Below, piece after piece: positions 1-63,921 of a stretch of DNA of 64,000 nucleotides. A program made the position numbers and the translations under genes. Position 1 is the stretch's first letter. Every line of letters begins with the position of its first letter. The notes under the pieces were generated by a model that was not told the origin of the DNA, ran no database searches, and saw nothing but the letters and a program-made list of their open reading frames with translations. The stretch comes from Kiritimatiellia bacterium (GTDB lineage: Bacteria; Verrucomicrobiota; Kiritimatiellia; RFP12; UBA1067), in the NCBI GenBank assembly GCA_017525475.1, contig JAFXST010000028.1, positions 11,656-75,655 of the forward strand, given 5' to 3'.

Positions 1-924
1 TTTGGCGGCTATTTTGGCGATGGCGGCATTGAGATCGAGGCAGGCGGCGCGGCTGATCTCGGCGGGGCTGTTGCCTTTGGCGATAATGGCGAGATGCCCC
101 GCCTCGATTGCCGGCATCAGAGCTACGCCGGGGCTGTAATCGTGCGGCAAGGCATAGGGCGATACTTTTATAATCTTGGTATCTTGGCGCTGGAGCAGCA
201 AGTCCAGGATTTGGCGCTCGCCAGGGCTGATAAAGCCGCTAAGCACGGTAATCTTGCCAAGTTGCGGCGCCAAATACTGCACCAAGGCCGCAAGTTGCTC
301 CTCGCTATTGTGCCGCGAAACTCGTAAGGCCACCAATGGGCGCTTGCTCGCTAGTAGCTCCACCGCGCCCACTCCGCGCCAATATTCGCCCGGCGTGAGA
401 CACCGCGCATTAAGCGGCTCCATCATACGCAACAATCCGCGGTTGTTGCGCAACTCCCATTTGAGCGGATTGTAGGCAATGTAGCGCTCTACCGCCTCGA
501 TTGCGCCGCGGTCCAGGCAGAGCCAATCGTGGTAGCCTTGCTGCCAAAGCGCACCCTCGCCGCCGATTTGCCAATAACAGCGGTTGATCCAGCTCTTGAA
601 CTTGCCCACGGCCGTATTCAGCGTGCGGATGGCCGCGCGGTGTTCAAGCCCGGGCTTGAGGTATAGCGACAAGTGCACATGATCGGGCATTACCACATGG
701 CCGTGCAAAACTAGCGCCTCGGCGTTGAATACGCGCTCCATGGAGGCAAGCGCCTTATGCCCAAGCGCCGATAGCGCCATAGCGCCATCTACTACCGCGC
801 CAAATACCTGGCGGCGCGGTTTGGTGGTTATGGTTATAAATAGCGCCGCGCCTCGGCTGTAGTCATAGCCGCCAAACCGCCGGTAATGCGCAATCTCGGA
901 CATAGTGAGAGTATTATAGCGCAT
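1..924 (-). CDS. Partial CDS running off the window start. The N-terminal ~165 aa is an IS200/RAYT-like HUH Y1 transposase domain; it is fused to a >=150 aa C-terminal extension of unknown function
   Basis: Reverse-strand frame is open from ATG at 922-924 to position 1 with no stop. It is absent from the ORF track because it has no in-window stop. HUH motif HGHVVMPDHVHLSLY and catalytic-Tyr motif YIAYNPLKW are seen in the translation. Confidence 0.5.
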   Translation of the reverse strand, partial: MRYNTLTMSEIAHYRRFGGYDYSRGAALFITITTKPRRQVFGAVVDGAMALSALGHKALASMERVFNAEALVLHGHVVMPDHVHLSLYLKPGLEHRAAIRTLNTAVGKFKSWINRCYWQIGGEGALWQQGYHDWLCLDRGAIEAVERYIAYNPLKWELRNNRGLLRMMEPLNARCLTPGEYWRGVGAVELLASKRPLVALRVSRHNSEEQLAALVQYLAPQLGKITVLSGFISPGERQILDLLLQRQDTKIIKVSPYALPHDYSPGVALMPAIEAGHLAIIAKGNSPAEISRAACLDLNAAIAKIAAK

Positions 925-1048
925 TTGCCGCCATATGTCAAGCGCAAAGTTGGACTTTTTAGCCAAAAAAGGAAACCGCCCTCGATCGAGGACGGTTTCT
1001 TTTGCGTTATGCCGTATGGCTTAGGCGCGCAGTGATCGCGTGCGATTG

Positions 1049-1675
1049 CTATTTACTCAACTTGTCGACAGGCGTTATGGTCTTGGCTCGTTGCACCAAT
1101 ACATATACATTAAACACCGCCATGGCAACAAAGAATACAATGCCGGCAATGCCAAATGCAACCATCCAACGACTTGGTGAAGTGAGCAATCCCGCCGCAC
1201 TATATATCGATCCCGCAACCGATAGCATCAGCGACATCAGCATCGAGTAGATATCGCGTTGTTCAGCGCGCCGGATGCGATCGATCTCCATATCGGAGGC
1301 CAAAGCATTCAACCTGTTCGACAATCTCTGCAAGGCCTTTACAAACGGAGTCAATGCCGCAGCCCTACGAATCAATGCAAGGCGCTCAGCAAACGACATC
1401 TCCTGCACCGCTTTGACATTGCGGAAAACCGGATAGAGTTCGCGGAACAAGGCCATATTGCCATCATAGTTGGGGACTAGCTGACGCAAAACATCAAGCG
1501 GACAATTCTTGGATTCGAATGTCCGAACTATCTCAAGCTGACTGTTGATTATTGCATCAAATGCATCAAACCAAGCGCGCCGGCAATGCGATACCACTTT
1601 GGCCTTTTCGCTATCAACATCGGTATCGGCACCAGGCGCCAACACCTTGAGCAGATGATTGCCGGCATAACGCAA
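1049..1675 (-). CDS. Hypothetical protein with two C-terminal TM helices. It has a TTG start and may be the 3' part of a frameshifted gene that continues into ORF 1794..2012
   Basis: 208-aa ORF. The only in-frame start is TTG and the first ATG is at codon 74. The frame stays open upstream to 1781, while the 72-aa ORF 1794..2012 ends at 1794 in another frame. The region is AT-rich. Confidence 0.35.
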   Translation of the reverse strand: MRYAGNHLLKVLAPGADTDVDSEKAKVVSHCRRAWFDAFDAIINSQLEIVRTFESKNCPLDVLRQLVPNYDGNMALFRELYPVFRNVKAVQEMSFAERLALIRRAAALTPFVKALQRLSNRLNALASDMEIDRIRRAEQRDIYSMLMSLMLSVAGSIYSAAGLLTSPSRWMVAFGIAGIVFFVAMAVFNVYVLVQRAKTITPVDKLSK

Positions 1676-1793
1676 CTGGTTGATAGCGGCGGTAGGAACT
1701 GCTCCCGATATGCGCTCGCAACGCTTGATCGCGTTGTTCAGCGCGCCGGAATTGCGCCTTAAGCTTGTAGAAATCCAAAGTCACGAGCTAAAG

Positions 1794-2012
1794 TCAAATC
1801 TTGTGGGACTGATCCTGATAGAGGACCATATCGCGGAATATTTCCCGCCCGGATGCCATAGCCTCGTTGCCCTGCGCGCCAAGACTGGTGGTTGAGGAAA
1901 CCGTCAGATATTGAATGGCATCGTCAGCAGAAGCATATTGTTCTATATCAGAATAACTACGCGACCTGAACGGCCGCATCAAAGCAACTAGTCGCTTAAC
2001 TATATTAATCAT
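1794..2012 (-). pseudogene. 72-aa ORF directly downstream of a consensus promoter. It is possibly the 5' part of a frameshifted gene continuing into 1049..1675
   Basis: The promoter at 2036-2070 points into it. A single frameshift near 1781-1796 would fuse it to the 208-aa ORF. Confidence 0.3.
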
Positions 2013-2035
2013 TAGATTAATCCGTAAGAACGCGC

Positions 2036-2070
2036 ATATTATACCATATTTTCGTCTCGTTTGTCAAGCG
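2036..2070 (-). promoter_or_regulatory. Sigma70-type promoter. -35 is TTGACA (2062-2067), spacer 18 nt, extended -10 is TGGTATAAT (2038-2046)
   Basis: Reverse complement reads cgcTTGACAaacgagacgaaaataTGGTATAATatg. It belongs to a family of 8 near-identical promoters in this window. Confidence 0.6.
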
Positions 2071-2115
2071 GAATCTGAGGATTTTGCGCATTTTTAGCCT
2101 TTGCTGGTGGCTTAA

Positions 2116-2165
2116 GTGCGACTGTGTTCGCAATCGAGAGCGAGAACATCGTGGGGTACCAGCAG
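2116..2165. repeat. Left arm of a 50-bp inverted repeat (47/50 identical to 5024-5073). It lies at the 5' end of the start-less secreted-protein gene copy
   Basis: gtgcgactgtgttcgcaatcgagagcgagaacatcgtggggtaccagcag matches the reverse complement of 5024-5073. Weaker similarity extends about 60 bp further. Confidence 0.8.
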
Positions 2166-2915
2166 GTGTCTGTTCCTAATGGCTTCTCGCTCTTTACCGC
2201 CACCTTCAAGAATATTGGCGACACCAAAACTTTTGATTTGAATTCGCTTCGTCCTACCGATCCCAACGGCAATGTTATTTCCTTGTCGGATGGCACCATC
2301 TATGTCTGCGTGCTTGACAGCTCTGGCAATTATGGTGAAAACATCAAGTGGCGTGGCAAGACCCTTGGCGGGTGGTCTAAAGATGGCACCACCATCATTG
2401 CCAACGGGGAAGTCACTATTGGTGAAGGCGTTGGTATCGCGGTCTATAATAACATCAAGGTAGACGGCGACGGCAACGAAACCACCAAAAAGACCGGTGT
2501 CGCGGCGCCAGCTAAGTTCCAAGTAAGCGGAGAAGTTGATCTTGTTTGCAAGAACTTGGCTGCTCCTGGCTTCTCGATTAGTGGCAATTCCACCCCCTCG
2601 ACCATCGATTTGACCGCTGTCAGGCCTACCGATCTTAATGGTAAAGTGCTTAACCTTTCTGATGGTACAGTTTACATTTGCCTTTTGGATACTGTTGGCA
2701 ATTATGGAGAAAACATCAAGTGGCGCGGCAAGACCCTCGGCGGTTGGTCGGTTGATGGTACTAATCTGATTTCTCAAGGTGACTATGTTATCGCTGCCGG
2801 CTCTGGCTTCGCGATATATAACAATGTCAAGGCCGATTCGGATGGAAATGAATCTACGGCCAAGAAGGCAACGGCAACGAGCATCTATCTGAGCCTGCCT
2901 CCGCCTGTGCAATAA
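2124..2915 (+). CDS. Paralog (A') of the secreted internal-repeat protein 4302..5093. It lacks an ATG and a signal peptide, so it is either a silent cassette copy or starts at GTG
   Basis: Translation IESENIVGYQQVSVPNGFS... is near-identical to mature A for its first 30 aa. The upstream in-frame sequence GFCAFLAFAGGLSATVFA is a degenerate signal peptide with no start codon, and there is a stop at 2076. It carries two internal repeats (..NYGENIKWRGKTLGGWS..) and is one of only two plus-strand genes in the window. Confidence 0.5.
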   Translation: MFAIESENIVGYQQVSVPNGFSLFTATFKNIGDTKTFDLNSLRPTDPNGNVISLSDGTIYVCVLDSSGNYGENIKWRGKTLGGWSKDGTTIIANGEVTIGEGVGIAVYNNIKVDGDGNETTKKTGVAAPAKFQVSGEVDLVCKNLAAPGFSISGNSTPSTIDLTAVRPTDLNGKVLNLSDGTVYICLLDTVGNYGENIKWRGKTLGGWSVDGTNLISQGDYVIAAGSGFAIYNNVKADSDGNESTAKKATATSIYLSLPPPVQ

Positions 2916-2961
2916 TTTTGTGCGGCAAGGGGTCGCACGAACAAACAAACAAAGGAAAACA

Positions 2962-3543
2962 ATGAAAAAACTGATAATTGGTGCAGCAATTTGTTGCGCA
3001 TCGCTGTTCGGATTTTCCGCAACAGTTAACTGGCCATCGGCCGGCATTCAGACGACTGGTGACTTTGATTCGGGCGAAGGCGATTATGCTGCCGGGTATG
3101 CCGTATATCTGTTCAATAATGCCGGCTCCTACACTCAGGCCCAGATGCTGTCGCTCATCACGGCTGGCACAGGCTGGGAAATCGCTTTTGCTAACGAAAC
3201 AAAAGCCTATCTTGGTTCTGCAGTAGCGGATGCTGATGGCGCGTTCAGCCCTGCAGTCGATGCTACTGTTGCGGATGGCGACTTCTCGGGCTACCTCGTA
3301 ATCTTCGACGCGGATAGCTATGATAAGGCAACTTATGCTTTCGTGTCCGAGACATACAATGCATCCGACAACTCCATGCATAAGATGTCGCTCGAGTACG
3401 ATGGCAAGACTTGGGTAAATGCGCTTGATTACAGCACTGCCGGTCAGGCTGGCTCCAATTGGCATGCCATTCCGGAGCCGACTTCGGGACTGCTGTTGCT
3501 CGTTGGCGGTGCGCTGCTCGCGCTCAAGCGTCGTCGCGCCTAA
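2962..3543 (+). CDS. PEP-CTERM sorting-domain protein (B')
   Basis: MKKLIIGAAICCASLFGFSATVNW is a signal peptide. The C-terminus IPEPTSGLLLLVGGALLALKRRRA has the PEP motif, a TM helix and an Arg cluster. It shares the start context caaaggaaaacaATGAAAAAACT with genes at 4254 and 5093. Confidence 0.75.
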   Translation: MKKLIIGAAICCASLFGFSATVNWPSAGIQTTGDFDSGEGDYAAGYAVYLFNNAGSYTQAQMLSLITAGTGWEIAFANETKAYLGSAVADADGAFSPAVDATVADGDFSGYLVIFDADSYDKATYAFVSETYNASDNSMHKMSLEYDGKTWVNALDYSTAGQAGSNWHAIPEPTSGLLLLVGGALLALKRRRA

Positions 3544-3666
3544 GCCATACGGCATAACGCAAAAGAAACCGTCCTCAATCGAGGGCGGTTTTCTTTTGTC
3601 TATAAACCATGAGACTGCCCCAATCGGGACAGTCTCACGAGTTAGACTATTATAGTCTCGATACGC

Positions 3667-4254
3667 TTAGGCCAAGCGACGGCGACGGAGAGCCAGCAAG
3701 GCACCGCCTACGACGAGCAACAGCCCGCTCGTAGGTTCAGGAATCGGCTCCGGACCAGAACCCGAAGAGATCGTCGACCAATCGGAAACAAGACCGGTGT
3801 AGAGGTCGCCAGCATCGCCAAAGAAGGCTCCGCCTGCAATAACAGAATCGGATACCTTTACCTGCCCGAGGGATGCGATAGTAAACGCAGAACCGTCATC
3901 TACTGACGAATCGACGAGTACTAGCATGAGACTTGCATATGCGGGACTGGCCGTGTCATCATACGACAAGCCAGCGCCAGAAAACGCCAACTCGCCATCA
4001 GCCGTGACTACACCAGCGGTAGCGTTGAGTGCAGAACCGAGCACGGTAGTTCCGGTAGTAGTAAGTGCTTCTTGCAACGCAAGTTGCGTATAAGCGCTAC
4101 CATCAAACGCATAGCCACAATAGCCAACGAGAGTGGAGTCCGCATCGCCATCAGTTTCGGTTACCAAACCGAGCGACACATTCCAGTTTACAGTTGCAGC
4201 ATTCAGGCCAATTGCCGCCAAGGCAACCGCGAACGCCATCATGAGTTTTTTCAT
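3667..4254 (-). CDS. PEP-CTERM sorting-domain protein (B), paralog of 2962..3543
   Basis: MKKLMMAFAVALAAIGLNAATVNW is a signal peptide. The C-terminus PEPIPEPTSGLLLVVGGALLALRRRRLA is a PEP-CTERM signal. Confidence 0.75.
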   Translation of the reverse strand: MKKLMMAFAVALAAIGLNAATVNWNVSLGLVTETDGDADSTLVGYCGYAFDGSAYTQLALQEALTTTGTTVLGSALNATAGVVTADGELAFSGAGLSYDDTASPAYASLMLVLVDSSVDDGSAFTIASLGQVKVSDSVIAGGAFFGDAGDLYTGLVSDWSTISSGSGPEPIPEPTSGLLLVVGGALLALRRRRLA

Positions 4255-4301
4255 TTGTTTTCCTTTGTTATGCACCTAACACCACGCTAGGCACTTAAAT
4301 C

Positions 4302-5093
4302 TTAGAGTTCCGGAGCCGGGAGGATAATCTGGGCGCCGTTGGCATTGCCGCAGTATACGATGAAGCCTTCGCCAGCATCAAACTGAACCGCATCACCTTC
4401 AATCAGAGTGTCACCATCGTACCAACCAGCCGGAGTCTTGGTGGAATAGTACTTGTACTGAGTACCATAAGTACCTTCTGAATCAACCTTGCGAACAATC
4501 ACGGCACCAGCGCTCTTCGTGGTGCCAGAGCCCGAGGTTTTCCACTCGCTACCATCGTACTGCTTGCAAGCAATAGCAGAAAGATTAATGGCAACAGGCG
4601 AGGCATTGCCAGAGAACGAATAGCCTTTGGGTACGAACTTGCCGGCAGGAACAAGACGAACCGAACCAGAAACCTGGAGAACTGCGCCATTGGCGTTGCC
4701 GCAATAAACAATCATACCCTCGCCAGACTCAAACTTAACTGCGTCGCCAGTAATCTGAGTATCACCATCGTACCAACCAACCGGGGTCTTAGTGGAATAG
4801 TATTTATACTGAGTTCCATAGGTGCCTTCAGTGTCGACCTTACGAACAATTACCGCACCAGCGCTCTTCGTAGTGCCAGAGCCCGAGGTTTTCCACTCAG
4901 AGCCATTCGACTGCTTGCAACCAATCTCGCTCAAGTTGAAATCGGTGGCGGTAATGTTCTCAAAGGTGGCGGTGAAGAAGGAGTAGCCCTTGGGGATGGA
5001 GATCTGCTGATAGCCCACGATGTTTTCGCTCTCGATTGCGAACACAGTCGCACAGAGTGCGCTCATGGCAGCTGCGCAAATAAGTTTTTTCAT
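4302..5093 (-). CDS. Secreted protein (A) of unknown function carrying a recent internal tandem duplication. It is the expressed copy of the mirrored cassette
   Basis: Signal peptide is MKKLICAAAMSALCATVFA. Two ~80-aa segments are nearly identical (DGSEWKTSGSGTTKSAGAVIVRKVD.EGTYGTQYKYYSTKTP.GWYDGDT). A consensus promoter sits 95 nt upstream. Confidence 0.7.
   Translation of the reverse strand: MKKLICAAAMSALCATVFAIESENIVGYQQISIPKGYSFFTATFENITATDFNLSEIGCKQSNGSEWKTSGSGTTKSAGAVIVRKVDTEGTYGTQYKYYSTKTPVGWYDGDTQITGDAVKFESGEGMIVYCGNANGAVLQVSGSVRLVPAGKFVPKGYSFSGNASPVAINLSAIACKQYDGSEWKTSGSGTTKSAGAVIVRKVDSEGTYGTQYKYYSTKTPAGWYDGDTLIEGDAVQFDAGEGFIVYCGNANGAQIILPAPEL
4328..4943. repeat. Intragenic tandem duplication. 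Copies at about 4328-4568 and 4703-4943 have a ~375-bp period and >90% DNA identity
   Basis: The shared segment gcaccagcgctcttcgt.gtgccagagcccgaggttttccactc is seen around 4510-4555 and 4860-4905. Confidence 0.7.
5024..5073. repeat. Right arm of the 50-bp inverted repeat, inside the 5' coding region of gene A just after its signal peptide
   Basis: Its reverse complement gtgcgactgtgttcgcaatcgagagcgaaaacatcgtgggctatcagcag matches 2116-2165. Confidence 0.8.
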
Positions 5094-5191
5094 AGTTGTT
5101 TTCCTTTGTTTTTACCCTTGGTCGGTAGAACCGCATGCGATCACCTGCCGCAAGTCATGCCTACTATTCCTTAGGATGAGAGTATTATACC

Positions 5192-5226
5192 ATATTGAGG
5201 GCTTGTTTGTCAATAGGGTTTTTCAG
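5192..5226 (-). promoter_or_regulatory. Sigma70-type promoter. -35 TTGACA (5218-5223), spacer 18 nt, extended -10 TGGTATAAT
   Basis: Reverse complement reads ccctaTTGACAaacaagccctcaataTGGTATAATactc. It drives gene A (start 5093). Confidence 0.6.
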
Positions 5227-5474
5227 GTTTTTTGACGAACATACTGGCCCCAGTCGCCGCGAAGAAGCCCGGCAAACGAAAGGTCTTCGTCGATATCGGG
5301 CCAGTGCAAGCCATCCTCATCCACTTCGATATGGACGAGTTGCTCCGGCGTTGCTCGTTCAAGCCGCCAGTTACCGGCAATGGGGAAAGAGAAAGACACG
5401 TCATTGGGCAGGCGGACATTAAAGCGCGAATCGGCAAACGACACGGCCGCCTTGTCTTCAGTCAAAGTATTCAT
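5223..5474 (-). CDS. DUF2442-family small protein, the second gene of a DUF4160/DUF2442 pair
   Basis: 83 aa. ..NDVSFSFPIAGNWRLERATPEQL..DEDGLHWPDIDEDLSFAGLL.. is typical of DUF2442. It overlaps the upstream DUF4160 gene by 17 nt. Confidence 0.6.
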   Translation of the reverse strand: MNTLTEDKAAVSFADSRFNVRLPNDVSFSFPIAGNWRLERATPEQLVHIEVDEDGLHWPDIDEDLSFAGLLRGDWGQYVRQKT

Positions 5475-5691
5475 GCCATTTCCTCCTTATGGTTTCGATG
5501 TTTTCCTCCGCGAGGTCTTGCGCCTTGCGGAGCTCCTGCACTTTCATGCCTTTCGACTCCAACAGTTGCACGTCGTTCGAGACATCGAACTTAGCCTTGC
5601 CAGACCCCGTCTTGACGTGAACGTGTATCGGTTCATGTTCGTTGGAAAAGAAATAAAAATTATAACCATCCTTGGTAAATACGTTTGGCAT
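5458..5691 (-). CDS. DUF4160-family small protein, the first gene of a DUF4160/DUF2442 pair
   Basis: 77 aa. The conserved motif is NEHEPIHVHV. A consensus promoter lies 20 nt upstream. Confidence 0.6.
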   Translation of the reverse strand: MPNVFTKDGYNFYFFSNEHEPIHVHVKTGSGKAKFDVSNDVQLLESKGMKVQELRKAQDLAEENIETIRRKWHEYFD

Positions 5692-5715
5692 TGTATTCCT
5701 TTCGCTTACTGCCGG

Positions 5716-5750
5716 ATATTATACCATATTTCCGTCTTACTTGTCAAGCG
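5716..5750 (-). promoter_or_regulatory. Sigma70-type promoter. -35 TTGACA (5742-5747), spacer 18 nt, extended -10 TGGTATAAT
   Basis: Reverse complement reads cgcTTGACAagtaagacggaaataTGGTATAATatcc. Confidence 0.6.
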
Positions 5751-5782
5751 TTTTTAGTAAATATTGGGGAACTAGGCACACA

Positions 5783-5814
5783 CCCTTCCGTGCCTTCCGT
5801 GTATTCCGTGGTTA
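5783..5814. repeat. Left copy of a ~32-bp direct repeat holding three TTCCGTG heptamers at 9-bp spacing. Its partner is at 6056-6087
   Basis: cccttccgtgccttccgtgtattccgtggtta compared with cccttccgtgaattccgtgtattccgtggtta. Confidence 0.7.
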
Positions 5815-5850
5815 AATAACGAAAGTGCCTGGCGGGCATCGTGGTGGACA

Positions 5851-6031
5851 CATCTCAACGGTGACACCTTTTGACCAATACGGTGTCACCTTTTCATCAA
5901 AACGGTGTCACCTTTTGACCAAAACGGTGTCACCTTTTCATCCAAACGGTGACACCTTTTGCATCAAACGGTGTCACCTTTTGTATCAAACGGTGTCACC
6001 TTTTATATCGAAAGGTGTCACCGTTGAGATG
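5851..6031. repeat. About 180-bp element. Eight tandem 22-23-bp units (ACGGTGTCACCTTTT plus 7-8 variable nt, dyad core GGTG(T/A)CACC) are bounded by perfect 18-bp terminal inverted repeats CATCTCAACGGTGACACC
   Basis: Direct reading of 5851-6031 shows this. The units carry no unique spacers, so it is not CRISPR-like. Plus-strand ORFs 5825..6130 and 5949..6239 are just translations of the repeat. Confidence 0.75.
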
Positions 6032-6055
6032 CATCTACCACGAGACAAGGATAGC

Positions 6056-6087
6056 CCCTTCCGTGAATTCCGTGTATTCCGTGGTTA
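6056..6087. repeat. Right copy of the ~32-bp TTCCGTG-triplet direct repeat
   Basis: It matches 5783-5814 with 2 mismatches. Confidence 0.7.
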
Positions 6088-6093
6088 TATTAG

Positions 6094-6145
6094 AGGGAAC
6101 AGGGAAGAGGGAACAGGGAAGAGGGAATAGGGAACAGGGAAGAGG
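6094..6145. repeat. Tandem heptamer repeats GGGAACA/GGGAAGA. On the transcribed minus strand they read CCCUCUU/CCCUGUU, which is C-rich and G-poor. They lie directly 3' of the stop of gene 6146..6859
   Basis: About 7 units abut stop codon 6146-6148. The composition resembles a rho-utilisation (rut) tract. Confidence 0.5.
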
Positions 6146-6859
6146 TCAGGGCTTGAAGCCCATGGGCGAGAGGATGGCGGCGGCGTCTTCAGGGGCGAGG
6201 GCGCCGCTTTGCACCCGGCCCAAGATCTGGGCGCGGTAGGTGCGCTCCATGGCTTGGCGTTCGTCGAGGAACGCGGCCAGGCGCTCGAGACCGTTGGACA
6301 TGGCCACATATTTGCGCGCTTCGTCCTTGATACCCACCAAAATGCGCTTTAGCTCCACGAGTTCGGCGGGATCGGCGGGGTCGAAGACGACTAGCGCCTT
6401 AAGCCCATCAACCGTAAGTTCGCTATCGGCCACCTCCAGCGTTTCGCCCGGCATGGCATAGCGCGCGAGGTAGCGATCGGTGGGGTTGGGGAGCAAGGAG
6501 GCCAAATCGAGCGCGCCCAAATCCACAAAGTGGCGAGGCGAGGCCGTACCCACGATGGCCGAGGCGACGAGAGCCTTTTCGGCGCGCTGCTTGAGCGCTT
6601 GAGGGGCGCGGGCCGAGGTGGCCCAAAGCGCCACGGCAACGCCCAAAGTAAGCGCCACCAACAAAAGGAGCCACATATCGCGCTTGCGCAGGCCCTTCAA
6701 ACCCAAGCGCACCACGGGCGCAATGCGCTCGGTTACGCGAATGGGGCGTATGCCTTGGCGGCGAAGCTCGGAGTAAGCCTCGTCTTTGCCGGGCGCGGAT
6801 ATGATACCCTCGTGCTTGAGCCCGGCGGAATCCTGGTAAGTATAGAGGAAAGTCCTCAC
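6146..6859 (-). CDS. Hypothetical membrane protein. Its N-terminal cytoplasmic domain resembles the GspF/PilC N-terminal domain and is followed by one TM helix
   Basis: MRTFLYTYQDSAGLKHEGIISAPGKDEAYSELRRQGIRPIRV follows the F-Y-x-D-x-G...L-R-x-x-G pattern of T2SS-F N-termini. The start forms an ATGA overlap with the upstream gene. Confidence 0.45.
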   Translation of the reverse strand: MRTFLYTYQDSAGLKHEGIISAPGKDEAYSELRRQGIRPIRVTERIAPVVRLGLKGLRKRDMWLLLLVALTLGVAVALWATSARAPQALKQRAEKALVASAIVGTASPRHFVDLGALDLASLLPNPTDRYLARYAMPGETLEVADSELTVDGLKALVVFDPADPAELVELKRILVGIKDEARKYVAMSNGLERLAAFLDERQAMERTYRAQILGRVQSGALAPEDAAAILSPMGFKP

Positions 6860-7545
6860 TTGCGCTCTTGGGCAAGCTCGGCTTCGACTTCGGCCGCGAT
6901 TTTGCGCTCGCGCTCGTCGGTGGGCGCGGGTGCCAGGCCTTCAAAGCAGGCGTCGCGGTAGGACATGGTCTGGAACTGGGTGATGCCGAGGCTCTTGAGG
7001 TTGGGGAAGATGGCCATGAGCGAATCGAAGGTCACGAGTTCGCCGGCCGCATCGAGATCGGATACGGAATACACGGGGCGCATGGACGAGGCCGTATACT
7101 TGGAGACGGCGCCGCCCAAGACGATGGTGGCGACGCGCAATACTTCCTTCTCGAGCTGCTTGGGCGCGAGGCCCTGCGCATTGACGACGCCCCACTTTTC
7201 CTCCATGGCGATGAGCGAGAGGGGGAGCGCGGGGTCGCTGGCCACGAACACGGCCGCGTTGGCGCCGCCCATTTTGTCCTTGGCGCCAACCAGCGCGAAT
7301 TCGCCCTGGCGCAGCTCGGCGTTGATCATCATGATGTTGCCGATCTTCTTGGCGGCGGTGGCAAGCGGCTCTTCGGGAGCTCCCGCGGCATTGACGATGG
7401 CGAACACGCCTTCGCCGCCGATGGTCACCATGGGGCCTTCGTCGACCGGCGGGGGTGGCGGCGCTTTGGGGGCGGCGGCGCGCTTGGGCGCGGCAACGGC
7501 GGTAAAGGCGGCGGCAAGCGCCAGGACGACAACTAGTTTGTGCAT
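6856..7545 (-). CDS. Secreted hypothetical protein
   Basis: True start is MHKLVVVLALAAAFTAVAAP with GGAGG 8 nt upstream. It includes a Pro-rich linker. Confidence 0.5.
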   Translation of the reverse strand: MHKLVVVLALAAAFTAVAAPKRAAAPKAPPPPPVDEGPMVTIGGEGVFAIVNAAGAPEEPLATAAKKIGNIMMINAELRQGEFALVGAKDKMGGANAAVFVASDPALPLSLIAMEEKWGVVNAQGLAPKQLEKEVLRVATIVLGGAVSKYTASSMRPVYSVSDLDAAGELVTFDSLMAIFPNLKSLGITQFQTMSYRDACFEGLAPAPTDERERKIAAEVEAELAQERK

Positions 7546-7561: not shown

Positions 7562-8341
7562 TCAGTAGATTTCGCGGGTTTCTTCGTTGTAGCGCAGGGG
7601 CTTGATGCCCTCGGCGTCGAGCACCTCGTTGACCTTTTCCACAAACTCGGCCGCGAGTTCGGGCTCTTCCTCGATTACCTGCTCCACTTCGTCGCGGTAG
7701 TTGTTGCGCTTTTCGAAGCCCTTCTTGAGCTCCTGGAAGTAGAACTGCATGAAGTCGTCGGGGTCGCCGCCCTCCTTGATGAACTCGAGCATCTCGCGCT
7801 TGGCGTAGCCCACCATTTCCTTGGCGTTCTTGGCCTCCTCGGAATCGGTCTCCTTGATCTCGTTGTGCGAGATGAGGATGGCCACCAGATTGTCGCGCTC
7901 CTCCTCGCTGAGGCTCGGGATGGGCATGGGCATGTCGCCGAGCTCGGTGTGGCAAATCCACGAGAGCAGCTGCTCGGTGCCGGTTTTGAAGGTGCGGTTG
8001 GTGATGCGGTCCCAATCGATATCCTTGCGCACGTCGTAGATGGTGAGCGGGCGGCCATCGGGCCCGAAGCCGAACGGAGCATCGGCGGTGGGGGCTTGGG
8101 AGAGGGTTTGGGCGAGCTCGTGCACCGGGGCGAGATCGGCCGGCTTATCGGCGATGGCGCCCGCGATGGCGCGGCGCTCCTTGGCGGGTTTGGCGCCCGG
8201 AAGCGTGGGGGCGCCGAACATCACGACCCAGGCGGCGACGGCGCCACCCACCACGACGATTAGCGCGATAAGCCCCCGCAAGACGCCGCCGCGTTTGGGC
8301 TTTTGGGCGGGAGCGGTTGTTTTACCGGTATTCCAAGCCAT
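7562..8341 (-). CDS. Membrane-anchored hypothetical protein with an acidic C-terminal region. It is the first gene of a three-gene operon of unknowns
   Basis: 259 aa with an N-terminal TM (LIALIVVVGGAVAAWVV). A consensus promoter lies about 30 nt upstream. Confidence 0.5.
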   Translation of the reverse strand: MAWNTGKTTAPAQKPKRGGVLRGLIALIVVVGGAVAAWVVMFGAPTLPGAKPAKERRAIAGAIADKPADLAPVHELAQTLSQAPTADAPFGFGPDGRPLTIYDVRKDIDWDRITNRTFKTGTEQLLSWICHTELGDMPMPIPSLSEEERDNLVAILISHNEIKETDSEEAKNAKEMVGYAKREMLEFIKEGGDPDDFMQFYFQELKKGFEKRNNYRDEVEQVIEEEPELAAEFVEKVNEVLDAEGIKPLRYNEETREIY

Positions 8342-8374
8342 ATTGCATCCTAGCTAGATTTTCGAGATTGGGGG

Positions 8375-8408
8375 ATATTATACCATATTCCCCGCCAAAA
8401 TTCAAGCG
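8375..8408 (-). promoter_or_regulatory. Sigma70-type promoter. -35 TTGAAT, spacer 17 nt, extended -10 TGGTATAAT
   Basis: Reverse complement reads ccgcTTGAATtttggcggggaataTGGTATAATatcccc. Confidence 0.55.
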
Positions 8409-8413
8409 GAAAT

Positions 8414-9088
8414 TTAGCGATTGGCGGCCAGCCAATCGAGGATGCCCTGGGCGATGGCGCGGGCGATTTGGGCGCGGCAGGCGGGGTCGAACGCTTCGCG
8501 GCAACCGTCCGGGTGGGTCAGGAAATCGGCCTCGACAAGGACGGAGGGGATTTCGGGCGAGCGGGTTACCGCGAAATTGGCATGGAGCGAGTCGCAGGGC
8601 GCAAGGCGCGCGGCGATGGCCTCCGCAAGCCGCTGCCCGAGGTCGTTCCAGCTGTAGACGGCACGGTAGCGCACGGCGAGCGGATCTTTGCCCGCCGCGG
8701 GGGCATTGTGGTGGATCGACACGAACGCATCGGCCTTGAGCTCGTGGGCGCGGCGAGGACGCTCGTAGAGGGGAACGTCGCTATCGTCCTCGCGCGTCAT
8801 CATCGCCTCGACACCCGCTTTGACAAGCTCGTCCCGGACCGCCAGCGCCAAAAGGAGATTGGCCTCGCTCTCGAAGCGGCCGTCGTAGCCGCGGCAGCCG
8901 TGGTTCTTTTTTCCCCCATGGCCGGGATCGATAAAGACGAGCGGCGAGACGCGATCGGCCGGACGCGTTGCGGGCGTATCGGCGGCATAGGCGAGCTTGG
9001 TATAGACCCGCTCGGGAACCGCGTTGGTGTTTTCGATTTCGTCGGGGCCGAAGAGCGACATCATCGCAAGGACGATCAAGCCGGACAT
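8414..9088 (-). CDS. N-acetylmuramoyl-L-alanine amidase (Amidase_3 family)
   Basis: Carries the IDPGHGG and HHNA motifs and an N-terminal membrane anchor. Confidence 0.75.
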   Translation of the reverse strand: MSGLIVLAMMSLFGPDEIENTNAVPERVYTKLAYAADTPATRPADRVSPLVFIDPGHGGKKNHGCRGYDGRFESEANLLLALAVRDELVKAGVEAMMTREDDSDVPLYERPRRAHELKADAFVSIHHNAPAAGKDPLAVRYRAVYSWNDLGQRLAEAIAARLAPCDSLHANFAVTRSPEIPSVLVEADFLTHPDGCREAFDPACRAQIARAIAQGILDWLAANR

Positions 9089-9777: not shown

Positions 9778-11891
9778 CGCACGACCTCATAGCCGTGCGG
9801 TTTGCCGCCAGTGATCTTGAAGTCCACGAGTTTGCCGTCGCGCCAGCTGATATCCACCGTATAGCCGCCGCGCGCCTTGAGCCCCTGCACCTCGCCATTG
9901 CGCCACCACGACGGTAACGCCGGCAAAATACGGATCAAGACCTTGCCCTCGGGCGTAGTCTCGTGGCTCTGGAGAAGCATCTCGCACACGGCGCCGACGA
10001 GGCCGAAATTGCCGTCGATCTGGAACGGCGGATGGTTGGCGAAGAAATTGGGCAGGATGTTGCATTTGGCCATTTCGACCAGCATTTCGCCGGCCTTGTC
10101 GCCATTGCCGAGCCGCGCCCAGATGGCGGCGCGCCAGGGCCAGGTCCAGCTGCGCTGCGAATCCTTGGTGGTGGTGCGCCCTTCGCGCAGCGTGACTTCG
10201 GCCGCATGGGCGAAATAGGGCGTGGCGGCGCGGGTGATGGTACTGCCGGGATAGACGGCGAAGAGATGGCTGGTGTGGCGATGGTCATCGCCCTTGACGT
10301 CGATATCCTCCTGCCATTCCTGGAGCTGCCCCCAAGAGCCGATCTTGTTGCCGCCCAACCGCCCGAGGAGCGTGTGGGCGTACAGGTCGTCGTTGCGGCC
10401 CAGGACGCGCTGCGCCTCGATTACGCACTTCAACAGCTCGGCCAGGATCTGCTGGTCGTGCATCACGCCATCGGCCACCGGGCCATGCTCGGGGCTCCAG
10501 CCGTCGGCCACGAGGAGCGTGGCTTCGCGCCCCACCTTGAGGCGCGAGATCATGAAGCGCGTGGCGTCCTCCAAAAGCGGCCAGGCGACGAACTCGAGAT
10601 AATCCTTATCCTGCGTGTAGCGGTAGTGCTCGTACGCCATCACCGCCATCCACGGCGCGCCCGCGAAATTCCACTTCCAGCCGCCGCCGCCGAACGCGTT
10701 GAGCGAGGTGCGGTAGGCCACGCCCTTGGAACCGGGGAAGGCAAGGCGCGTTTCCCGGGCGGCGGTACGGTTGGCGGCCGCGAGGAAATCGGTGACCGGC
10801 AGCCACAGCTCGGCGAGGTTGGCCGGCTCCACCCCCCAGTAGTTCATCTGGAAATTGATGTTGGTGTGGTAGTCGGAATGCCACGGCGGCTGGTTGTAGC
10901 AGTTCCAGATGCCCTGCAGATTGGCCGGGAGCGTGCCCGGGCGCGACGAGGAGATGAGGAGGTACCGCCCGTAGTTGAACAAGGTTTCGATAATCTCGAG
11001 GTCCAGATACTCGCGCCACGCCGAGGAAAACATTTCGGTAAACCAGTTGCGGTTGATGCCGGCAAGTTCCTCCGACGCGGTAAAGTCGCGCGAGGGCGTT
11101 TTGCCGGCGGAGGCGATGTCGAGGCGCACGCGGTCGAAATACCGGCGATAGTCGGCTACGTGCTCGGCCTTGATGAGGCTAAAGTCGGCGTTGAAGGCTT
11201 GCGGGTACTGCCGGCACTCCTGCCCGAGGCCGAAATCGCCGCGCCGCAAATCGTAGGCGGTGCGCGCGCGCAGATACACGGTAAGCGTGGTGGGGCTCTC
11301 CCAATGCCAGTCGACGCGGGCGACGTAGTGGAGTTGGTTGGGGAGCACCCCCGCAAAGCCGAGCGAATTTTCGCCCAGGCGCACCGTGCGCTCGCCGTGG
11401 ACGCCGGTAAGCATCAGGCGCGCATCGAACGGCTCCACCGCCTTGAACCTGAGGGCGATCACGTTGCGCGGGGCGCTTGCGAACGCCTCGCGCTCCACGC
11501 CGCCAAAGCGCACGGTATGGACGGCGGTAGCAAGATCGAGCGTGCGCGAGTAGTCTTTGGCCTTGGGAATATGGGTAAAATTGATGGCGAGGAAGCCGAA
11601 ATTCTGGTAGTCGCCCACCGTCTTGTCGGTAAGCACGCTCTCTTTGACGCCGGACGCGCCCGAAATGTTGGCATCTCCCGTCCAGAGCGAATCGACGTTG
11701 AACTGCACGAGTTCCTGATCGGTGCCGCCCTGGATCATGGCGCCCAACCGGCCGTTGCCGATGGGGTACCAGCTGTTCATCAGCTGCGCGTCGCCGGGAC
11801 GGTCAGCCCAAATCCGAGTTCCGCCCGTCGCCGAAGGCGCGATCGCGCTGACGGCGCACGTGGCGATTGCCAAAGCCGTGATGGGTTTCAT
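9774..11891 (-). CDS. Glycoside hydrolase family 95-like protein (alpha-L-fucosidase-like), secreted
   Basis: Likely start is MKPITALAIATCAVSAIA (signal peptide). The N-terminus NSWYPIGNGRLGAMIQGG...VQFNVDSLW is typical of GH95. Confidence 0.65.
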   Translation of the reverse strand: MKPITALAIATCAVSAIAPSATGGTRIWADRPGDAQLMNSWYPIGNGRLGAMIQGGTDQELVQFNVDSLWTGDANISGASGVKESVLTDKTVGDYQNFGFLAINFTHIPKAKDYSRTLDLATAVHTVRFGGVEREAFASAPRNVIALRFKAVEPFDARLMLTGVHGERTVRLGENSLGFAGVLPNQLHYVARVDWHWESPTTLTVYLRARTAYDLRRGDFGLGQECRQYPQAFNADFSLIKAEHVADYRRYFDRVRLDIASAGKTPSRDFTASEELAGINRNWFTEMFSSAWREYLDLEIIETLFNYGRYLLISSSRPGTLPANLQGIWNCYNQPPWHSDYHTNINFQMNYWGVEPANLAELWLPVTDFLAAANRTAARETRLAFPGSKGVAYRTSLNAFGGGGWKWNFAGAPWMAVMAYEHYRYTQDKDYLEFVAWPLLEDATRFMISRLKVGREATLLVADGWSPEHGPVADGVMHDQQILAELLKCVIEAQRVLGRNDDLYAHTLLGRLGGNKIGSWGQLQEWQEDIDVKGDDHRHTSHLFAVYPGSTITRAATPYFAHAAEVTLREGRTTTKDSQRSWTWPWRAAIWARLGNGDKAGEMLVEMAKCNILPNFFANHPPFQIDGNFGLVGAVCEMLLQSHETTPEGKVLIRILPALPSWWRNGEVQGLKARGGYTVDISWRDGKLVDFKITGGKPHGYEVVR

Positions 11892-17655: not shown

Positions 17656-17688
17656 ATTATACCATATTGAGCAATACTTCGTCAATAC
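17656..17688 (-). promoter_or_regulatory. Sigma70-type promoter. -35 TTGACG, spacer 18 nt, extended -10 TGGTATAAT. The predicted TSS coincides with the ATG, giving a leaderless mRNA
   Basis: Reverse complement reads cgtaTTGACGaagtattgctcaataTGGTATAATacaccctATG. Confidence 0.55.
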
Positions 17689-63891: not shown

Positions 63892-63921
63892 ATTATAGCA
63901 TATTTGCCTTCCTGCTGTCAA
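63892..63921 (-). promoter_or_regulatory. S10-operon promoter. -35 TTGACA (63916-63921), spacer 18 nt, -10 TATAAT (63892-63897)
   Basis: Reverse complement reads ccctaTTGACAgcaggaaggcaaatatgcTATAATagcac. This is a perfect consensus for both hexamers. Confidence 0.7.

Follow-up and report, generated by a model that had tools for sequence, protein, structure and literature searches.

The 64-kb stretch of Kiritimatiellae DNA analyzed here (the whole of it is referred to as the window) contains an intergenic array of eight evenly spaced palindromes, located at 5851-6031. The explanation that we favor, with better than even confidence, is that it is an orphan copy of the array that serves a lineage-specific DNA-binding protein of the HU-HIG type as its cognate operator. 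A first-pass annotation of the window had listed iteron- or centromere-like sites for a dimeric DNA-binding protein among several possibilities, and this is the possibility that is favored by the present data: the sites are 17-bp palindromes with a two-turn spacing, a 90-91% identical array is anchored at the promoter of a gene with an HU-DNA_bdg domain, and the sequence of the core tracks the protein clade. The window array would then belong, as an orphan, to a class of operator-like arrays that has not been described before and that is linked to an HU-HIG-type protein of the Kiritimatiellae. Tandem protein-binding arrays of the operator or iteron kind are known as such; what is new is the protein family, the strict promoter-anchored architecture of seven 22-bp units (7 x 22) and the dispersed orphans.

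The array and its relatives

The motif GGTGWCACC occurs eight times in the window, always within 5860-6022 and with a spacing of exactly 22 bp, compared with a chance expectation of 0.30, and none of 100 shuffles attains eight occurrences. Clearly, the palindromic GGTG(T/A)CACC core that had been proposed for each unit is present. Tandem Repeats Finder (TRF) assigns a period of 22 to the array, which is the sole 22-bp array of the window. The core is GGTGACACC at cores 1 and 5 and GGTGTCACC at the remaining six. According to the unit logo, the full site, AAAM-GGTGWCACC-TTTT, is palindromic over 17 bp and is separated from the next one by a 5-bp spacer; in the pooled logo (110 units from 16 arrays), T-G-W-C-A-C is invariant, the center is only A or T, and the flanks are an A-tract and a T-tract. 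The parts of the array are as follows.

5860..6022, plus strand: core array of eight 9-bp palindromic GGTGWCACC cores (22-bp spacing, unit logo, cross-locus identity)
5851..5868, plus strand: left inverted-repeat arm of 18 bp, CATCTCAAC and core 1 (from the sequence; strain-specific)
6014..6031, plus strand: right inverted-repeat arm of 18 bp, core 8 and GTTGAGATG (from the sequence; strain-specific)

The 22-bp period and the perfect 18-bp inverted ends described in the first-pass annotation are both found; 5851-5868 (CATCTCAACGGTGACACC) and 6014-6031 are reverse complements without a mismatch. The count of eight units plus two ends given there has to be revised, since the 181 bp of 5851-6031 correspond to 18 + 7x22 + 9, with eight cores in total, of which cores 1 and 8 form part of the inverted ends. 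Perfect 18-bp inverted ends are confined to the window strain, the termini of the other copies being TTAGCGATGC or TTAAGCATCAT. The relatives carry TTAGCGATGC where the window has the right arm (6014-6031), and the perfect end symmetry is therefore a derived change in the window strain. An assembly artefact is ruled out, as the same eight units are seen in separate metagenome assemblies made independently (L001, L002, and L003), and L002 and L003 come from a strain other than that of the window, having different flanks.

A scan of the genomes of 185,579 species for at least three GGTGWCACC motifs at 21-23 bp spacing identifies 73 loci, which are mostly unrelated; only three of them (L030, L033, and L065) share the unit GGTGWCACC-TTTT, ~5 nt, AAAM. 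L030 and L033 are two contigs of one Kiritimatiellae metagenome-assembled genome (MAG), RGIG6845, and the third locus is from a 'Verrucomicrobia' MAG. A metagenome scan adds nine further family arrays, and no match is found in the phage, plasmid and viral collections when searched with the array DNA or with the pattern. Several copies of the array are present per genome. The family copies align with the window array unit by unit, and the unit order is conserved between species. There are eight units in the window and in L002/L003, and seven, exactly 22 bp apart, in all other full-length GGTGWCACC copies; in L097, three units are visible before the array is cut by the contig end. The window array is 90-93% identical to the arrays of L115, L086, L103, and L085 and 73-81% identical to those of other groups.

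Orphan arrays of the same core type are found at unrelated loci, for example beside a TIR-domain gene (PF13676) and beside a RelB/PIN pair; other neighbors, assigned putatively from their N-terminal sequence, are an MreB-like gene and a gene for ribosomal protein L25/Ctc. No neighbor gene common to the window and the other array loci is found, and there is no conserved operon. At most loci, a consensus promoter directed away from the array lies on the unit-1 side, and the opposite end follows the stop codon of a co-oriented gene. In the group-2 orphans, a vestigial GTCAAG -35 hexamer is kept at the unit-1 end, which suggests that the orphans arose by duplication of a promoter-upstream array.

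A GC step of 3-15 percentage points is seen at most arrays (L002, L065, L084, L087, L088, L099, and the window), the lower-GC flank being usually on the unit-1 side; this may point to island boundaries. The remaining matches of the genome scan are 21-bp coding repeats or different 22-23-bp arrays. Unrelated GGTGWCACC arrays, such as GGGTGACATG-GGTGTCACC-CCGT..., occur in Collinsella, Bifidobacterium, Sphingopyxis, Paenibacillus, Oceanospirillum, Acidobacteriota, and Mycobacterium, and the unrelated arrays with a 22-23-bp period (L019, L067, L055, L024, L027, L041, L075, and others) resemble iteron or arm-site arrays of other elements. Other tandem repeats are also observed beside family arrays, namely a palindromic unit of ~22-24 bp, CTACATCGTGATGTAGACGNCG, and the repeats ATGGGACNN and AAATCGNT with a 9-bp period; these are located at ~960-1100 of L085 (oriented), ~3040-3190 of L103, ~770-860 of L115, and ~1690-1740 of L084. 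The 9-bp-period repeats recall the TTCCGTGNN triplets of the window and may be additional protein sites.

Anchoring of the arrays at the promoter of an HU-like gene

A gene with a PF14848 HU-DNA_bdg domain lies behind the array in L086, L099, L104, and L115, and its -35 hexamer borders on the array. In L086 and L099, this hexamer directly adjoins unit 1, and the gene product has 247 residues. The units of the HU-locus arrays of L086 and L115, which are 90-91% identical to the window array, are also AAAC-GGTGTCACC-TTTT; the L086 protein is 99% identical to P0002, and the L115 protein is of the P0002 type as well. An upstream array of ~7 units with a period of ~22 bp is found for 10 of the 10 close-clade homologues fetched, which are 35-100% identical to P0002. 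The loci with an upstream array at a homologue are L099, L104, L107, L110, L111, L112, L113, L114, L115, L116, and L118 (the L112 array is judged by eye, and L111 is without a recognizable promoter).

When nine of these loci are anchored at the -35 hexamer and divided into 22-bp segments centered 11, 33, 55 bp (and so on) upstream of it, seven palindromic units are found in each of the nine promoter-bearing loci, and unit 1 is always centered 11 bp upstream of the -35. The core differs between the protein clades: GGTGWCACC is found with P0001, P0002, and P0003, CCCTNAGGG with P0005, CATASTATG with P0007, CGTCWGACG with P0008, P0027, and P0036, GGTNNNACC with P0012, and GGTGGGACC with P0004. 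A fixed register together with a core that varies with the protein is the pattern expected of a protein and its own operator. With the operator-array family defined from L086, L099, L104, L107, L110, L113-L116, and L118, the window array shares its tandem ~17-bp palindromes at 22 bp and has the core and the flanks of the HU-locus array of its species group. It differs in having eight units instead of seven, and in its placement, as the hexamer at the -35 position is ATGTGT and the nearest -35 is 112 bp away.

The AlphaFold model of the HU-like protein (mean predicted local distance difference test score, pLDDT, of 81) consists of an HU-like N-terminal half, a disordered basic linker and a β-rich C-terminal domain. 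In the homologue alignment, a KKPPR motif in the basic linker and a GGKPGG-type tail are conserved. The top solved structure in a Foldseek search is 4FMR (BVU_2165 of Bacteroides vulgatus; E 5e-10), which covers both domains, and this entry is also the sole match of a sequence-profile search of the PDB. In Pfam, PF14848 scores above the cut-off, and PF14734 and PF18291 (DUF4469 immunoglobulin (Ig)-like, HU-HIG) are sub-threshold matches. The protein has the features by which HU-HIG membership is recognized, a modified HU domain with a C-terminal Ig-like domain or glycine-rich tail. The profile matches 14 representative clusters at E <= 1e-30, 98 at 1e-10, and 476 at 1e-3. NCBIfam has no name for these HU-like proteins, and a tblastn search of plasmids with them gives no match.

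The HU-HIG proteins have been described as being without conserved gene neighbors and as unlikely sequence-specific transcription factors, and no DNA target is reported for them in that study (Burroughs et al. 2017, PMC5499826); in the literature searched for these domains and for such arrays, nothing else of relevance is found. The protein described here resembles the published clade in its modified HU domain (PF14848), its Ig-like C-terminal domain and its glycine-rich tail, and also in that its gene stands alone, without conserved operon partners, as in PMC5499826. It differs in being from Kiritimatiellae and not from Bacteroidetes, and in that each gene has a promoter-anchored 7 x 22-bp palindrome array.

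In L088, an orphan array has a truncated HU-like paralogue (8015-8530) at a distance of 2.6 kb; of this paralogue only the C-terminal two-thirds remain, and in place of the N-terminal part there is a gene of opposite orientation with its own consensus promoter.

Proposed complex and alternative explanations

The candidate binder is a protein of ~250 residues with a PF14848 HU-like domain and an Ig-like domain, belonging in this species group to the P0002 cluster and encoded outside the window. One dimer would bind to each 17-bp palindrome, so that eight dimers would be accommodated on the window array, and the 22-bp spacing, ~two helical turns, would set these dimers along roughly one face of the DNA. 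Adjacent dimers would touch one another, generating a nucleoprotein filament of ~170 bp. At its own gene, where the array complex would end 11 bp from the -35, the protein most likely autoregulates. In the window, the complex would be positioned between the 3' end of a conserved operon and a toxin-antitoxin promoter, on the border of a low-GC variable island. Its most likely effect there, and our best guess for the role of the array at this locus, is to modulate or insulate this neighboring promoter at the island boundary; titration of the protein would be a further consequence. It can be speculated that the conserved basic linker reads the A/T flanks and that variable parts of the protein read the core. 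The architecture of the array, its presence at several loci, the constant register at the promoter of the HU-like gene and the change of core with clade are observed; the physical binding, the oligomerization and the direction of the regulatory effect are features that we infer.

Several observations weigh against this explanation. Ig-fused HU-HIG proteins are predicted to be unlikely to bind DNA via the HU clasp (Burroughs et al. 2017, PMC5499826). An HU-like gene was sought in the window and none is found, the gene being seen only in the same species group; this also points to the window array being an orphan copy. The distant homologue P0205 (L120, the one distant locus examined) is without a 7 x 22 array, so that this architecture is established for the close clade only. 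The orphan array is at least 112 bp from the nearest -35, compared with 11 bp at the HU-like gene, and in L002 the neighboring gene converges on the array, which makes direct promoter control at the window locus uncertain. The co-variation between a gene and its own upstream DNA could partly reflect shared descent, and another, unseen factor could be the binder.

Other repeats are present at the L120 locus: four TGCCATTAA / TTAATGGCA motifs (5840-6000) in the 5' leader of the P0205 gene, and, downstream of this gene, a 23-bp array (with GTGACACC) and a 22-bp array at 7287-7372 and 7862-7945.

The anatomy of the arrays can be compared with that of several known systems. The omega repressor of pSM19035 (inc18) is one dimeric protein that binds cooperatively to 7-10 contiguous short repeats (heptads) in mixed orientation, and its arrays, upstream of several promoters including its own, act as operator and centromere. 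One dimeric protein, in our case a candidate, and repeat arrays upstream of several promoters including its own are the shared features. In the omega system, however, the units are 7 bp without spacer, the protein has the ribbon-helix-helix fold, the system is plasmid-borne, and there is a ParA partner (delta), whereas here 17-bp palindromes recur every 22 bp, the candidate is HU-like plus Ig-like, and the arrays are chromosomal with no linked NTPase. Iterons (R6K, RK2, P1, and F) are 4-9 tandem sites with ~22-bp spacing beside the cognate gene, and orphan arrays titrate the protein; the spacing, the adjacent cognate gene, the co-variation of site and protein and the extra orphan arrays are similar here. 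Iterons differ in being asymmetric, in being bound by Rep monomers (winged-helix), and in being close to DnaA boxes and an AT-rich unwinding region, whereas the sites described here are palindromic, with no Rep gene and no DnaA box within 1.4 kb. The centromeres parC (R1/pSK41) and sopC (F) are helically phased tandem repeats at or upstream of the promoter of the operon of an autoregulating centromere-binding protein. Phased tandem repeats upstream of the promoter of the binder are also seen here, and the sopC units each have an inverted repeat; the difference is that no partner NTPase is linked to the arrays here. To our knowledge, the operon of type II and type Ib plasmid centromere systems always includes their partner NTPase, ParM or ParA. 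A further comparison is with the BOX elements of Streptococcus pneumoniae and other modular repeats resembling miniature inverted-repeat elements. These are likewise dispersed intergenic elements with internal tandem units, variable in number, between pairable end modules, but BOX elements have conserved end modules and over a hundred copies, whereas here the ends vary, the copy number is low, and the 7-8 units are fixed, with conserved order.

It is possible, although distinctly unlikely, that the array is a centromere or chromosome-organizing site (as are the parC, sopC, and omega arrays), being captured by the HU-like or another protein for segregation or anchoring and not for transcription. 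Tandem palindromes in seven or eight copies with two-turn spacing, an adjacent gene for the cognate protein and clade-specific sequences are the anatomy of a plasmid centromere, the several copies per genome would agree with this, and origin-type genes are near some copies: dnaA-dnaN is 9 kb from the array in L002/L003, and an open reading frame with a GyrB-like N terminus (putative, by sequence reading) is 3.4 kb from the L099 array. However, according to precomputed Pfam tables, no ParA, ParM or TubZ-type NTPase is found beside any array or HU-like gene, dnaA is not within 58 kb in the window strain, and other arrays adjoin unrelated genes. Neither a partner NTPase family in the locus tables nor a parS-like site (consensus TGTTNCACGTGAAACA, at most three mismatches, searched in the window) is found, and a plasmid-type partition centromere is not supported. 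The same holds for an iteron-type replication origin: there is no Rep initiator gene, and the neighbors are DUF4160/DUF2442 and a T2SSF_N-like gene. The DnaA box nearest to the array, a TTATCCACA-like site with one mismatch, is at 7635, with none within 1.4 kb and a count in the window that is not above chance, and no AT-rich unwinding region stands out on inspection of the sequence, no formal test having been made. A role of the array in RNA or single-stranded form, by which the transcribed units fold into one or more long hairpins that terminate or insulate transcription or stabilize a 3' end, is very improbable. The region 5780-6150 folds with -163 and -168 kcal/mol on the two strands (z = -10.3 and -8.9 compared with shuffles), arrays usually lie between the stop of one gene and the promoter of the next gene in the same orientation, gene 6146-6859 is followed by no other terminator, and the cores remain palindromic as their sequence changes among clades. 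Such a fold is, nevertheless, automatic for any repeated 17-bp palindrome, and mirror spacers are complementary at 7.0 of 13 positions versus 6.06 for other spacer pairs, a small excess. The perfect stem base, the 18-bp inverted repeat, is confined to the window strain, the T-tracts are within stems with no free U-tail, and L104 already has, by eye, an intrinsic terminator (a GC-rich hairpin and a T-run) before its array. The fixed register to the -35 upstream of the HU-like promoters is a constraint at the level of DNA. No terminator-like site is called on the array and it has no Rfam match (at the gathering threshold there is none in the whole window, and a tRNA search also gives none), so that an intrinsic terminator or a known RNA family is rejected. 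A clustered regularly interspaced short palindromic repeat (CRISPR) array is also rejected, as the period is 22 bp with variable spacers of only ~5 bp, compared with the repeats of 23-50 bp and unique spacers required; on both counts, CRISPR and obvious terminator, this agrees with the first-pass annotation.

The lowest probability is given to a non-autonomous dispersed repeat, of the kind of miniature inverted-repeat transposable elements (MITEs), BOX or repetitive extragenic palindromic (REP) sequences, spread without host function by a transposase such as the RAYT-like Y1 protein at the left edge of the window. The array is multi-copy at unrelated intergenic sites, the window copy has inverted ends and flanking 35-bp direct repeats and borders a variable low-GC island in which the Y1_Tnp-like gene is found, a two-unit array remnant is beside that gene, and assemblies frequently break at the array. 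But the copies do not share their ends, the direct repeats stand 33 and 24 bp off these ends instead of abutting them, with one displaced by a cassette in L002, and the array occurs in low copy number, a handful per genome. The number of units (7-8) and their order are conserved across species, and the promoter register is kept down to 35% protein identity, which argues for an ancient, functional placement; the RAYT-like gene itself is flanked by other hairpins, CCGCCC-ATATAA-GGGCGG. The earlier suggestion of a miniature inverted-repeat element with a captured satellite is not borne out, as the inverted ends are strain-specific, the other ends being TTAGCGATGC/TTAAGCATCAT, and no target-site duplication is seen. 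Variable ends and direct repeats 24-33 bp away from them also speak against a MITE, and the different hairpins at the Y1_Tnp-like gene and the single array in the window against REP sequences or bacterial interspersed mosaic elements (BIMEs) mobilized by a RAYT. There is, finally, a very slim chance that the array is a protein-free structural element, in which phased A/T-tracts curve the DNA before strong promoters, or the site of some other transcription factor whose gene is elsewhere. The A4 and T4 tracts repeat every 22 bp and consensus promoters follow the arrays in most loci; however, curvature leaves unexplained the invariant GGTGWCACC and the exchange of the core from clade to clade at an unchanged register, the clade D arrays have the same architecture without A4/T4 flanks, and the HU-like gene is the only gene consistently linked to the array.

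If the array is indeed an orphan operator of an HU-HIG-type protein, it would be the first candidate DNA target of this large and fast-evolving family, and the five different cores would provide concrete protein-site pairs that are testable. The arrays have spread by copying to further positions in the chromosome, often bordering variable islands and adjacent to toxin-antitoxin or defense genes, and may reveal how Kiritimatiellota, a poorly studied phylum of gut and rumen, organizes or insulates variable DNA. A more far-reaching proposal, which we consider unlikely, is that this clade of HU-HIG proteins is a new class of sequence-specific chromatin organizers nucleated on arrays, each having its own 17-bp palindrome and 22-bp-phased array of 7-8 units, with the orphans as boundary, silencing or anchoring sites at the edges of variable, low-GC islands rich in toxin-antitoxin and defense genes. 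If true, these arrays would be the counterpart, in the PVC (Planctomycetes-Verrucomicrobia-Chlamydiae) lineage, of the nucleation sites of xenogeneic silencers or of centromeres, and the published prediction of HU-HIG proteins as non-sequence-specific binders (PMC5499826) would be overturned.

Flanking repeats, promoter and neighboring genes

The other features around the array are the following.

5783..5817, plus strand: direct repeat A, three TTCCGTG copies with 9-bp spacing, located between the toxin-antitoxin promoter and the array
6056..6090, plus strand: direct repeat B, three TTCCGTG copies with 9-bp spacing (identity with repeat A, 91%)
6094..6145, plus strand: heptamer tract GGGAACA/GGGAAGA, 7.4 copies, abutting the stop codon of gene 6146-6859
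5718..5747, minus strand: consensus sigma-70 promoter (TTGACA, 18-nt spacer, TATAAT, TG before the -10) of DUF4160/DUF2442
5223..5691, minus strand: DUF4160/DUF2442 pair, a toxin-antitoxin-like cassette (Pfam matches)
5458-5691, minus strand: DUF4160 gene (PF13711, E 3.7e-18)
5223-5474, minus strand: DUF2442 gene (PF10387, E 6.3e-13)
6146..6859, minus strand: gene for a 237-residue protein with a T2SSF_N match (precomputed), its stop codon abutting the heptamer tract

The direct repeats of TTCCGTG triplets that had been noted on both sides of the array are real, each being 35 nt long; their distance from the inverted ends, given earlier as ~35 bp on each side, is 33 bp for A and 24 bp for B. 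Repeat B is also found to the right of the arrays of L085 and L097, where the neighboring genes differ, which suggests that it travels with the array. The tandem heptamers, likewise noted before, do run through 6094-6145 up to the stop codon of gene 6146-6859, and their copy number differs by strain (7.4 in the window, ~3 in L002). The assemblies L005, L007, and L009 end ~50 bp past this stop codon, within the heptamer tract. On the transcribed minus strand, the tract is C/T-rich and G-poor and comes straight after the stop codon, resembling a Rho-loading (Rho utilization, rut) site.

The DUF4160/DUF2442 promoter is on the unit-1 side and reads away from the array, with 112 bp between its -35 and core 1. 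It is possible that the array controls this operon, as had been proposed, and the orientation toward a downstream promoter, which is mostly conserved across loci, fits a regulatory role of this kind; the 112 bp to the -35 and the different, inverted toxin-antitoxin cassette beside the array in L002 speak against it. The 237-residue protein is identical to MBR4522972.1 of a Kiritimatiellae MAG, and its gene is the final gene of the conserved core with 62% GC ahead of the low-GC variable island. The GC step is at the array, from ~50% on the left (about 900-6100) to 62-64%, that of the core genome, on the right. The low-GC region contains duplicated, inverted PEP-CTERM-type gene pairs, the DUF4160/DUF2442 pair and a Y1-transposase-like gene.

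In the L002/L003 strain, the three right-hand genes, the array and both direct repeats are retained, and the toxin-antitoxin cassette beside the array is swapped: the window has DUF4160/DUF2442 (5223-5750) and L002 has Phd/Fic (11065-11760) in the opposite orientation. The Phd/Fic cassette is inserted between the array and repeat A, separating the two, and its promoter sequence is identical to that of the window cassette. Five near-identical consensus promoters of the form TTGACA-N13-TATGGTATAAT are present in the window, where 0.01 is expected, all on the minus strand (2038-2067, 5184-5213, 5718-5747, 17656-17685, and 63892-63921), and a ~45-bp cassette with this promoter also heads other toxin-antitoxin pairs in L002, L084, and L103.

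The two inverted gene pairs of the island (2124-5093) each encode a 263-residue protein beginning FAIESENIVGYQQ and a PEP-CTERM protein of ~200 residues; pair 1 is at 2124-2915 / 2920-3543 on the plus strand and pair 2 at 4302-5093 / 3667-4275 on the minus strand. Further copies of this pair exist outside the window and in L002, consistent with a variable low-GC gene-family island. At the left edge of the window, a 315-residue Y1_Tnp (IS200/RAYT-like) protein with a long C-terminal extension is encoded at 1-903 on the minus strand (15957-16904 of L001). Past this edge, two inverted CCGCCC-ATATAA-GGGCGG hairpins are followed by the two-unit array remnant AAAAGGTGAGACGTTTT..AAAAAGGTGTCACCTTAA (16890-17062 of L001), in the orientation opposite to that of the main array. 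On the other side, upstream of the conserved block of three genes, synteny breaks at ~8419 of the window (1-8441 of L002), with TatD, amidase, GH95, and PheS genes in the window and dnaA-dnaN and others in L002/L003. This suggests a large rearrangement with its breakpoint ~2.4 kb from the array.

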